Below are positions 1,873 through 36,604 of a stretch of DNA of 64,000 nucleotides, piece by piece. Location: positions 192,001 to 256,000 of the IMG/VR virus record IMGVR_UViG_3300017716_001697. One strand, written 5' to 3'. Source of the DNA: a virus (Duplodnaviria; Caudoviricetes). Positions within the stretch are counted from its first letter, which is position 1. Each line of letters starts with the position of its first letter. The notes below the pieces were generated by a model. The model searched no databases, was not told the DNA's origin, and worked only from the letters and a program-made list of their open reading frames with translations. Both the position numbers and the translations under genes were made by a program.

Positions 1873-2227
1873 AGAATTTAGAAAAATAATGCTCCCTATG
1901 ATTCGGAGGATAGCGCCTGCCCTAATTGCGCAAGATATGCTCGGTGTGCAGCCAATGGCGTATCCGACTAAATTATCGTATACTACTGGTGCAGATTATT
2001 CAATTGAAAATCCATTTGAAATAGAGTGGCACTGGGTCCAAACAAGATCGCCATTTATTTTCAGTCTAAAGTTTGGAAAGAAGCCACCACTCACCGATAT
2101 GGAAGACTGGTGTAACGAAGCGTTTGGCGCGGACCAGACAACATGGAAAACGCATCTGTCAAAATACTATTTTAAAGAAGAAGAAATGCGCACCATGTTT
2201 ATTCTAAGGTGGTCAAATGAGTTATAA
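1865..2227 (+). CDS. Family A protein with N-terminal gp23 (major capsid)-like peptide
   Basis: N-term IRRIAPALIAQDMLGVQPM; C-term YFKEEEMRTMFILRW. Confidence 0.75.
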   Translation: MDEEFRKIMLPMIRRIAPALIAQDMLGVQPMAYPTKLSYTTGADYSIENPFEIEWHWVQTRSPFIFSLKFGKKPPLTDMEDWCNEAFGADQTTWKTHLSKYYFKEEEMRTMFILRWSNEL

Positions 2228-20574: not shown

Positions 20575-20745
20575 ATGATTTGTCCGAAATGTGATACACT
20601 GATGGGTGCAATGGGGTATGGTGATGAACGGTGTCCTGCTTGTGGACACACATCATATTCTGAATCTGATGAAGAATTTAATCTTCGCATATACGGTACA
20701 ACATTCCGTGAAGGCGAAGATATTGACACTGAACAAAGAGAATAA
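20575..20745 (+). CDS. Small Zn-ribbon protein (56 aa, absent from ORF track)
   Basis: MICPKC...RCPACG; stop 1 nt before the rtcB ATG. Confidence 0.7.
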   Translation: MICPKCDTLMGAMGYGDERCPACGHTSYSESDEEFNLRIYGTTFREGEDIDTEQRE

Positions 20746-20746
20746 T

Positions 20747-21940
20747 ATGGAAATCGAAAATGTAAAAATGTGGGTAGGTGATATGGAAGTAGAGCAAGCA
20801 GCTCTATCCCAAATCCTAAACATTTCCCAACTACCTATCCTTGCTGGACACATGGCTATCATGCCAGACGTACACATGGGTAAAGGTGCCACTGTGGGTT
20901 CTGTTATCCCTACACGTTCTGCAATTATTCCTGCGGCTGTGGGTGTGGATATCGGCTGTGGTATGATTGCAGCAATGACCAACCTTACTGCCGATGATCT
21001 TCCTGACTCATTGTTTTCGTTGCGTAATGCAATTGAAAAGGTAGTACCTGTAGGATTCAACGAACACGCAAAGGGCATCCCTTCTGTATCGGGACCTTAC
21101 GCAGATATCCTGCGCAAGAATTTGCACAAGACAATGGATCAATGGGATCACTTGGCAATGAAGCAGCACCTTGGTCGTGCTGACGAAAAGCGCATTGCTC
21201 GCCAAATCGGTACGCTAGGTGGTGGTAACCACTTTATCGAAATCTGTCTCGATACATCTAACCGTGTGTGGATTATGTTACACAGTGGTTCACGCGGTAT
21301 CGGCAATCAAATCGGCACTGTTGCAATCGAAATGGCTAAAGAACAGGCTGCTAAACGTGCATGGGGTCTCCCTGATGCTGATCTTGCATGGCTGGACGAA
21401 GGCACAACCGAATTCGATGCATACATTGAGGCAATGCATTGGGCACAGGACTATGCAAAATTCAACCGCGATACAATGCTGAATTTGGTTATTTCTGCAA
21501 TGAAGGTAAAGTTTCCTACAATGAAGATTGTTGGCGAAGTTGTAAACTGCCACCATAATTTTACAAGCGTGGAAGAGCACTTCAATGAAAAGATCTGGGT
21601 GACACGTAAGGGTGCAGTTTCTGCGCAGTATGGGCAAATGGGTATTATTCCCGGCTCAATGGGTGCAAAGTCATTCATTGTTCGCGGTAAAGGTAATCCT
21701 GATTCCTACTGCTCGTGTTCGCATGGTGCTGGTCGTAAGATGAGCCGCAACCAAGCTAAGAAGTTGTTCACATCACTTGATCTAGAACAACAAACAGCCG
21801 GTGTTGAGTGCCGTAAGGATGCAGACGTAGTTGATGAAATTCCGGGTGCATATAAGGATATTGATCAGGTAATGGCAGCGCAGGCTGATTTGGTTGATAT
21901 TGTACACACGTTGAAGCAAGTTCTTTGTATTAAGGGGTAA
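20747..21940 (+). CDS. rtcB: RtcB RNA ligase (joins 3'-P or 2',3'-cyclic-P to 5'-OH)
   Basis: PDVHMGKG, VGVDIGCG, GTLGGGNHFIE, HSGSRG, HHNF, RKGA, PGSMG, SHGAGR, YKDI motifs. Confidence 0.97.
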   Translation: MEIENVKMWVGDMEVEQAALSQILNISQLPILAGHMAIMPDVHMGKGATVGSVIPTRSAIIPAAVGVDIGCGMIAAMTNLTADDLPDSLFSLRNAIEKVVPVGFNEHAKGIPSVSGPYADILRKNLHKTMDQWDHLAMKQHLGRADEKRIARQIGTLGGGNHFIEICLDTSNRVWIMLHSGSRGIGNQIGTVAIEMAKEQAAKRAWGLPDADLAWLDEGTTEFDAYIEAMHWAQDYAKFNRDTMLNLVISAMKVKFPTMKIVGEVVNCHHNFTSVEEHFNEKIWVTRKGAVSAQYGQMGIIPGSMGAKSFIVRGKGNPDSYCSCSHGAGRKMSRNQAKKLFTSLDLEQQTAGVECRKDADVVDEIPGAYKDIDQVMAAQADLVDIVHTLKQVLCIKG

Positions 21941-35860: not shown

Positions 35861-35889
35861 TTTACAAGCTGTATAAATAGCATTATAAT
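35861..35889 (+). promoter_or_regulatory. Composite promoter: sigma70 with an embedded T4-late box
   Basis: TTTACA-N17-TATAAT with TATAAATA at 35872..35879. Confidence 0.65.
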
Positions 35890-35894
35890 TAGAT

Positions 35895-36068
35895 ATGAAC
35901 AAAAGAGGACGGCGAGAAGCATTGATGGAAAGGCGGCGAGGCCCTAAGCCACTAAAGACTCGCGAACAATGGATAGCAGAAATGCAAGAACAGTGGAATC
36001 AGATAAAGGAATATAAAGAAATAAATCCCGAAAGTGTAAGGATTGCTAAAGAATTAGGTTTGAAGTAA
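35895..36068 (+). CDS. 57-aa basic protein directly upstream of the ribozyme (absent from ORF track)
   Basis: MNKRGRREALMERRRGPKP...; stop 2 nt before hammerhead stem I. Confidence 0.55.
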   Translation: MNKRGRREALMERRRGPKPLKTREQWIAEMQEQWNQIKEYKEINPESVRIAKELGLK

Positions 36069-36070
36069 AT

Positions 36071-36228
36071 CACAACTGATGAGCCTGTAAGGGCGAAATC
36101 ACAGAACTTGTAGAACTGTTTGGGAACCTTTTAACTCGGTGTATACAACATCCGAAAGGATGCCCGTAAGGAAACGAAGGGAACTGCCTGAGACTAGGAT
36201 ATAGGACTTCTCGTTCTGTGATATTGTG
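36071..36228 (+). ncRNA. Type I hammerhead ribozyme with ~105-nt insertion in loop III
   Basis: Stem I CACAA/TTGTG, core CTGATGA, stem II GCC-TGTAAG-GGC, GAAA, 10-bp stem III ATCACAGAAC/GTTCTGTGAT, cleavage triplet AUA (cut 36223/36224). Confidence 0.88.
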
Positions 36229-36510
36229 TTAGAAAGGTTGATCCACTGGCTTTCACTGCCCACTGGCTTGCTGCTTAAAATTGGCCGCCATGGATTTGTA
36301 CTAAGGATCAAAGGTAACTTGCGCTCATCCAAACGCAGAAGGAGATATATCCAAAGGATCTTTAACCAACTCTAATAGACGATGATAGTAGGGCAAAATA
36401 TTAACGCCCGAGCCACTTACTCGTACCGATAGCCGGGGTGTAATGCATATAGATTATAAATGTAGTATAGATAGAGTTAGGAAGGTAGTAATACTGAAAC
36501 TAACAGGAGT
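36229..36510 (+). ncRNA. Structured RNA downstream of the hammerhead
   Basis: No plausible ORF; stems GGTT-GATCC/GGATC-AACC, AACTCTA/TAGAGTT, GGGC/GCCC, CGAG/CTCG; repeat CCACTGGCTT x2. Confidence 0.55.
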
Positions 36511-36538
36511 AAGCCCATGTAACAGTGGGCTTTCTTTT
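36511..36538 (+). terminator. Intrinsic terminator
   Basis: AAGCCCA/TGGGCTT stem plus T tract. Confidence 0.8.
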
Positions 36539-36553
36539 GACTTAAAATAGCAG

Positions 36554-36582
36554 TTGACAAGATTGACAAACTACGTTACAAT
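36554..36582 (+). promoter_or_regulatory. sigma70-type early promoter
   Basis: TTGACA-N17-TACAAT. Confidence 0.75.
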
Positions 36583-36604
36583 ATAAGCATACAAAGGAGA
36601 TAGT

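Follow-up and report, generated by a model that had tools for sequence, protein, structure and literature searches.

Type I hammerhead ribozymes occur in the intergenic regions of phages and prophages, and the processing of phage transcripts has been proposed as their role (Perreault et al. 2011, PMC3088659); the purpose of bacterial and phage hammerheads is not yet known (PMC6765202). Self-cleavage by the glmS ribozyme yields a 5′-OH product, an mRNA that is marked for decay (PMC6765202). T4-type phages also carry PeSLs, cassettes that combine a promoter with a stem-loop (Arbiol et al. 2010, PMC2839356).

The phage locus described here has features in common with each of these systems. With the phage hammerheads (PMC3088659; Rfam clan CL00010) it shares the catalytic core, the three-stem layout, the cleavage chemistry and a place between parts of a transcription unit. 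It differs from them in a 105-nt stem III insert, in Rfam scores far below threshold, and in that the cut is followed not by a gene but by a non-coding RNA whose conserved core lies in the stretch up to a terminator. As in glmS and engineered ribozyme-cleaved RNAs (PMC6765202), self-cleavage would leave a downstream 5′-OH RNA whose end decides its fate, but here it is a non-coding product that is presumably the useful molecule. Like PeSL cassettes (PMC2839356) and phage morons, the locus has a terminator hairpin and a strong sigma-70-like promoter bordering a small accessory unit, and the same border stands before different genes in another phage (contig L019, see below). Unlike in PeSLs, the cargo is a ribozyme with a 315-nt non-coding RNA, and the conserved core is no component of PeSLs. 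Finally, the RNA is phage-borne, non-coding and without known function, as are GOLLD (RF02032), ROOL and RAGATH. It gives no match to any of the three at E ≤ 10, is much smaller than GOLLD or ROOL, and has low predicted stability, with conservation at the level of sequence rather than structure.

A self-contained unit in a giant T4-type phage

The window, the whole 64,000-nt stretch of DNA analyzed, spans bases 192001-256000 of a viral record that is 364,576 bp long and bears direct terminal repeats. The phage is a giant T4-type, with a match to the Gp23 major capsid protein (257 bits) in the capsid gene proper at genome positions 341341-342321. Cultured phages are all remote, the DNA ligase being at most 44% identical to that of any GenBank phage. 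A second, short match to a Gp23-family N-terminus (window 1874-1999, 36.7 bits, profile positions 3-44) sits in a 120-aa ORF (1865-2227) distant from the true capsid gene. Elsewhere in the window are two tRNAs and, within the tRNA/small-RNA region, a group I intron match (RF00028, 26339-26574) that at 53 bits is barely over the gathering score. A full-length RtcB RNA ligase (PF01139, 427 bits) is encoded at 20606-21940, and its gene end lies ~14 kb upstream of the hammerhead start at 36071.

The unit is placed between two plus-strand genes and contains, in order, a promoter, a 57-codon ORF, a hammerhead, a 315-nt tail and a terminator, after which comes the promoter of the next genes. Its features are as follows (window positions):

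35861..35889, plus strand: sigma-70-like promoter of the unit, TTTACA-17-TATAAT, 11/12 matches; promoter function predicted
35872-35879, plus strand: T4-type late-promoter word TATAAATA, within the sigma-70-like promoter; from sequence
35895..36068, plus strand: 57-codon orphan ORF (P0001), arginine-rich at its N-terminus and lacking a Shine-Dalgarno (SD) sequence
36071..36228, plus strand: type I hammerhead ribozyme, from its consensus core, its minimum free energy (MFE) fold and compensatory changes of stem III in L019
36108-36212, plus strand: stem III insert with two or three GNRA-capped hairpins
36224..36310, plus strand: variable 5′ arm of the tail, 87 nt, with tandem CCACTGGCTT at 36243 and 36260
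36311..36421, plus strand: sequence-conserved core of the tail, 111 nt, 83% identical to L019
36412..36446, plus strand: hairpin in which UUAC pairs with GUAA, apical stem CCG/CGG at 36426-36436; from RNAalifold on two sequences and single folds
36476..36504, plus strand: GUUAG/CUAAC stem around a GNRA-capped hairpin with loop GUAA at 36488-91; from RNAalifold and single folds
36511..36538, plus strand: intrinsic terminator, an 8-bp hairpin (36511-36532) with a U-tract to 36538
36554..36582, plus strand: next promoter, TTGACA-17-TACAAT, strong by its sequence and serving the downstream genes

The earlier note had proposed that the 3′ end of the RNA is made by an intrinsic terminator, and our analysis bears this out: the hairpin at 36511-36538 is GC-rich and followed by a U-tract, as in Rho-independent terminators, and its pairs are preserved in L019 through one-sided changes. 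The tandem repeat that it reported is likewise present, at the two positions listed.

Codon usage of P0001 is clearly frame-specific (score +10.2, vs -27 ± 14 in off-frame slices and 22 ± 7 in in-frame slices), and by this measure it is probably a real small gene. It could be translated as a leaderless message from the sigma-70 promoter. P0001 matches nothing in Pfam or PHROG, and relatives are absent from the viral contigs, a set of 5.8 billion proteins and the Atlas. A full HMMER scan returned just one weak repeat protein, P0005, a 776-aa metagenomic protein with about eight 74-aa tandem repeats, each of which P0001 weakly resembles (31-33% identity). Its N-terminus may resemble N-type arginine-rich motifs, and P0001 could represent a small domain of HTH-like or RNA-binding type.

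A type I hammerhead with a long stem III insert

The ribozyme that the earlier note had placed at the 5′ end of the RNA proves to be a canonical hammerhead and is a member of a known family. The conserved core of the type I class (C3-U4-G5-A6-N7-G8-A9, G12-A13-A14, A15.1:U16.1, H17 not G) is present throughout, with CUGAUGA at 36076-82, GAAA at 36095-98, the A15.1:U16.1 pair (U36222) and A36223 as A17. Stem I is an open stem of 5 bp between 36071-75 and 36224-28 (UUGUG), stem II (36083-94) has 4 bp and a GUAA loop, and stem III pairs 36099-107 with 36213-21 (9 bp plus the A:U) and encloses the 105-nt insert. All three stems are recovered by the MFE fold of 36060-36235, and the motif is single in the whole 365-kb genome. 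Cleavage should fall between A36223 and U36224, as the sequence predicts, giving a product that starts at U36224 with a 5′ hydroxyl. In the global MFE fold of the whole precursor the hammerhead is not retained, suggesting that cleavage depends on co-transcriptional folding.

Rfam models miss this hammerhead because they do not allow an insert of 105 nt in stem III: the best hit, Hammerhead_HH9, reached 18.5 bits (E = 0.11; threshold 52), with an alignment that is misplaced across the insert. The insert and its counterpart in L019 have short blocks in common (UKGUAGRAYU and GGGA..UUUUAACUC) in otherwise diverged sequence, and the insert may serve the ribozyme as a functional domain. In Erwinia phage RAY (KU886224), neither a core pattern nor RF00163 revealed a convincing hammerhead for comparison.

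The hammerhead begins 2 nt past the stop codon of the 57-codon ORF. This position, together with the coding character of the ORF, speaks for a different role, in which the ribozyme would serve the ORF by trimming its mRNA 2 nt past the stop and setting its 3′ end and half-life, the 315 nt being a discarded 3′ UTR and terminator. Processing of phage transcripts to gene-length mRNAs is indeed the published suggestion for phage hammerheads (PMC3088659, PMC6765202). This is the main rival to the reading that we favor, and we place it on the unlikely side for reasons that appear in the comparison with homologues.

A single distant homologue retains the ribozyme and the tail

Homologues of the unit are scarce. 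A blastn search of 50,697 phage records returned only chance matches within genes. Neither five DNA patterns in IMG/VR contigs, one of which had a fixed 3-nt spacer and would miss spacing of the L019 type, nor two patterns in GTDB genome contigs found any. Relatives of the flanking proteins, 55-70% identical, are encoded on nine viral contigs; at these nine loci the unit is absent and gene order is not preserved. Neither G001 (354 kb), the closest relative with a complete genome, nor other whole related records contain it.

Near-identical words appeared, by a public-run index, in many freshwater and wastewater runs. Contigs covering part of the unit came from run X7 (two contigs, 36114-36394, about 92% likeness), run X16 (36263-36459, about 88%) and run X3 (36445-36595, 98.7%); run X2 had no contig on the stretch. 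Over the core, the X16 and X7 contigs are about 88-92% identical to the window. Both runs are labelled RNA-Seq and flagged as probably DNA, and they are therefore silent on expression; the index gave no RNA run containing the stretch. A 24-mer invariant in the run contigs retrieved one JGI metagenome contig, L019, which is the only distant homologue. The family as known thus comprises one full distant homologue and three partial, short contigs, so that covariation rests on two sequences only.

L019, read as its reverse complement, begins inside the ribozyme at N7-G8-A9 and keeps the layout of the hammerhead: stem II with a GGAA loop, the GAAA box, stem III, the U-A cleavage site and UUGUG after it, as in the window. 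As the contig starts mid-ribozyme and its 10.1-11.1 pair would be U-U, activity of this copy is uncertain. With the start at N7 and stem I identical, stem III was the sole stem compared for covariation; in five of its nine pairs both bases differ, in a sixth only one does, and none is broken. A 380-nt tail follows, and then a terminator, a TTGACA-17-TATAAT promoter and unrelated genes.

Identity between the window and L019 is unevenly distributed. It amounts to 53% in the stem III insert, 49% in the 5′ arm of the tail (shuffled 46 ± 2), where L019 has 124 nt and the window 87 nt, 83% in the core (36311-36421), 63% in the middle, 65% in the 3′ part, 67% in the promoter and 52% in the downstream genes. 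A short direct repeat is present in each of the two unalignable 5′ arms but differs between them: CCACUGGCUU occurs twice in the window (36243-36269) and GUGGAUUU twice in L019 (reverse complement ~163-195). The repeat of each homologue is vaguely like the 3′ strand of its own terminator.

A non-coding tail of low predicted stability

The earlier note had described the tail as a structured RNA. Its MFE is -74.6 kcal/mol, compared with -76.2 ± 4.1 in shuffled sequences (z = +0.38), and the tail is thus no stabler than chance; by part, z is +1.1 for the 5′ arm, +0.14 for the core and -1.5 for the 3′ part. This absence of excess stability also agrees with the view of the tail as a discarded 3′ UTR. 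The complementary words that the note had named are all present (GGTTGATCC at 36236, GGATC at 36356, AACC at 36364, AACTCTA at 36368 and TAGAGTT at 36472), but the two-domain fold that it built from them is unsupported. The closing helix of the first domain appears in the MFE structure, but 3 of its 9 pairs are broken in X7 (36359, 36360 and 36365 changed, the 5′ strand not), if both X7 contigs, ~92% identical to the window, come from one genome. Of the second, just 4 contiguous pairs remain in L019, and RNAalifold prefers a competing hairpin, GUUAG/CUAAC. Covariation, which the note had suggested as a check, supports stem III of the ribozyme, with compensatory change in 5/9 pairs; the two-domain fold fails against the relatives.

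Smaller hairpins, on the other hand, keep their shape. In the one at 36412-36446, the G36412:C36446 pair is A:U in L019, a change seen in two sequences only, and the apical stem CCG/CGG is replaced by UUUGA/UCAAA with the AUAG loop unchanged. Within the GUUAG/CUAAC stem, the inner GNRA hairpin is longer in L019 and has a GAAA loop, so that both length and sequence differ. The CUAAC of this stem (36500-04) has two possible partners, the local GUUAG and a GUUAG at the 5′ end (36228-32), with partition-function probabilities in the window of 0.51 for the 5′ partner and 0.47 for the local one. In L019 the partition function splits it 0.44/0.36 between the 5′-end partner and the local one. The 5′-end partner, GUUAG or GUUGG, corresponds to nucleotides 5-9 of the cleaved RNA. 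Since it overlaps the 3′ strand of stem I, the freed 5′ end could, in these models, refold after cleavage into a closing helix.

Concerning coding potential, the note had found no credible ORF or ribosome-binding site. As to the frames this holds: those of 49 and 35 aa have codon scores of ~0 on phage usage and are not preserved in L019, which has no ORF on the minus strand. An SD-like AAGGAG (36340-45) does exist, without a start codon 5-12 nt after it; the word AAGGAGAUAUA may resemble the ribosome-binding site of T7 gene 10. A small peptide encoded in the tail, or a non-standard start after AAGGAG, strikes us as barely plausible. In its favor are this SD-like word and the sole shared mini-frame, 16 codons from an ATG at 36382 with a same-frame counterpart in L019. 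That mini-frame is destroyed in X7 and X16, the latter with frame-shifting indels, and a 1-nt indel near 36337-39 makes the frames of the window and L019 differ across the core, the 49-aa frame included. By these sequence criteria the tail is shown to be non-coding.

Rfam gave no plus-strand match in 36224-36500 at E ≤ 10 (tmRNA, RNase P, SRP, 6S, Y RNA, GOLLD, ROOL, RAGATH and riboswitches), and ARAGORN found no tmRNA in the tail. The note's failure to match the RNA to tmRNA, RNase P, SRP or 6S RNA therefore stands, and the Rfam search that it had proposed, GOLLD, ROOL and RAGATH included, has been run. RAGATH motifs are defined by nearness to hammerhead- and twister-associated genes.

A core conserved in sequence

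The note had counted as evidence against its proposal a tail conserved only as random intergenic sequence. Conservation of the core does not have this character. Invariant blocks cover 36311-36336, 16 columns from 36340 and shorter stretches up to 36420. The variable columns cluster: invariant runs reach 26 columns against 14.4 expected (P = 0.013), and the three longest total 51 against 33 expected (P = 0.002). The core contains AAGGAG and a GGGC-loop-GCCC hairpin (36391-36409), and most of it is predicted to be unpaired (z about 0). The phage genome has a single copy of the core and no paralogues. A candidate antisense target at genome positions 92951-92980 (26/31 nt, E = 0.11) is attributed to chance. 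Parts of the core presumably resemble boxA; the boxA-like word is not preserved in X7, X16 or L019.

These observations weigh against the idea that the ribozyme merely trims the mRNA of the 57-codon ORF. It leaves unexplained why a 111-nt core stands at 83% identity with clustered blocks when the 5′ arm and the neighboring genes are randomised, nor does it account for the shape-conserved hairpins; for trimming, a terminator directly behind the ribozyme would suffice. In contrast, linkage of hammerhead and tail in two otherwise randomised lineages favors an RNA that is under selection and whose ends arise by ribozyme cleavage and termination, as do the frame-independent, blockwise conservation of the core and the shape-conserved hairpins. 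With most of the conserved core predicted to be unpaired, it probably functions through recognition of its sequence by a protein or RNA partner.

One specific form of such recognition would be sequestration: like CsrB or RsmZ, the tail would act as a sponge for a factor that binds GGA or SD sequences, for example a CsrA/RsmA-type protein or 30S subunits. AGGA occurs 9 times in the window unit (36069-36538) against 2.9 in dinucleotide shuffles (P = 0.003), only 0.45% of genome windows have as many ANGGA, and the AAGGAG of the core is invariant. L019, however, is not enriched (AGGA 3 times against 2.6 expected, P = 0.5), and several GGA lie in predicted stems. The GGA density of the tail is far below that of known sponges. 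We regard this reading as highly improbable, and the CsrA version was dropped because L019 lacks the enrichment.

The border between terminator and downstream promoter

The terminator hairpin and the sigma-70-like promoter (window 36511-36582; L019 reverse complement 447-540) are preserved as a pair, and the genes behind them differ. A contig from run X3 has only the promoter (36543-36583) in common with the window, with unlike flanks, and one weak promoter paralogue, but no multi-copy PeSL family, was seen in the genome. To judge by this arrangement, the junction looks like a shuffling border of the PeSL type.

All of this would also fit a role in DNA, with the core, terminator and promoter forming a mobile PeSL-type cassette for regulation or recombination that spreads among T4-type phages by recombination, and the RNA having no role. 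The border preserved in L019 before unrelated genes, the X3 contig, the similar promoter elsewhere in the genome and the behavior of PeSLs in T4-type phages (PMC2839356) are all as this would predict. We nevertheless think it quite unlikely. A block of 300 nt that includes a ribozyme is unlike PeSLs, which are short units of a promoter and a stem-loop; the genome contains the core only once; the hammerhead co-varies with the tail; and the hairpins keep pairing despite sequence change, including G-U pairs that are valid only on plus-strand RNA. Mosaic exchange between phages could still be partly responsible for the high identity of the core.

A model for the released RNA

Together, these findings lead us to favor a reading to which we give about an even chance: the 315 nt would be the 3′ product of a self-contained, moron-like unit with its own promoter and terminator, and a selected 5′-OH RNA that works through an open, sequence-conserved core. 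Transcription would start from the promoter at 35861-35889, cross the probably real 57-codon ORF, the type I hammerhead and the tail, and stop at the terminator (36511-36538). The hammerhead would be complete before the tail is made and would cut after A36223 in vivo. Upstream of the cut, this would release the ORF mRNA with the ribozyme and a 2′,3′-cyclic phosphate at its 3′ end, and downstream a non-coding RNA with a 5′-OH end and a terminator hairpin.

The released RNA would be modular rather than one compact fold, consisting of a fast-evolving 5′ arm, the 111-nt core, a few shape-conserved hairpins and the terminator. Its functional part would be the core, on which a protein or RNA partner most likely binds. 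The freed 5′ end GUUAG (36228-32) may pair with CUAAC (36500-04), a switch that would close the molecule and hinder re-ligation. For the hammerhead as a maturation device of a non-coding RNA, as the earlier note had it, this is the best reading, consistent with the hammerhead-tail linkage in L019 and with the conserved, non-coding core. The second part of that proposal, stabilization of the RNA through resistance of its 5′-OH end to 5′-monophosphate-dependent decay, is conceivable as a conjecture.

The ends made by a hammerhead, 5′-OH and 2′,3′-cyclic phosphate, are exactly those that RtcB joins, which raises the idea that the hammerhead and the phage RtcB form one pathway. In such a pathway the released RNA or the upstream fragment would be re-joined, closed into a circle or attached to other cleaved RNAs, with a product that might serve, for example, as a decoy or repair substrate under host nuclease attack, and the choice of the end presented would depend on CUAAC as a switch between two partners. 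We consider this very unlikely.

Implications

Neither the literature that we found nor Rfam describes a non-coding RNA that is matured by a hammerhead, has a conserved core and belongs to a moron-like unit. On present evidence the family is rare and tiny, and its RNA is presumed to be expressed. In two diverged phages, the ribozyme is tied to a downstream non-coding RNA with a sequence-constrained core. For the phage hammerheads this offers a testable hypothesis: the ribozyme would be a maturation device that fixes the 5′ end of a phage non-coding RNA.
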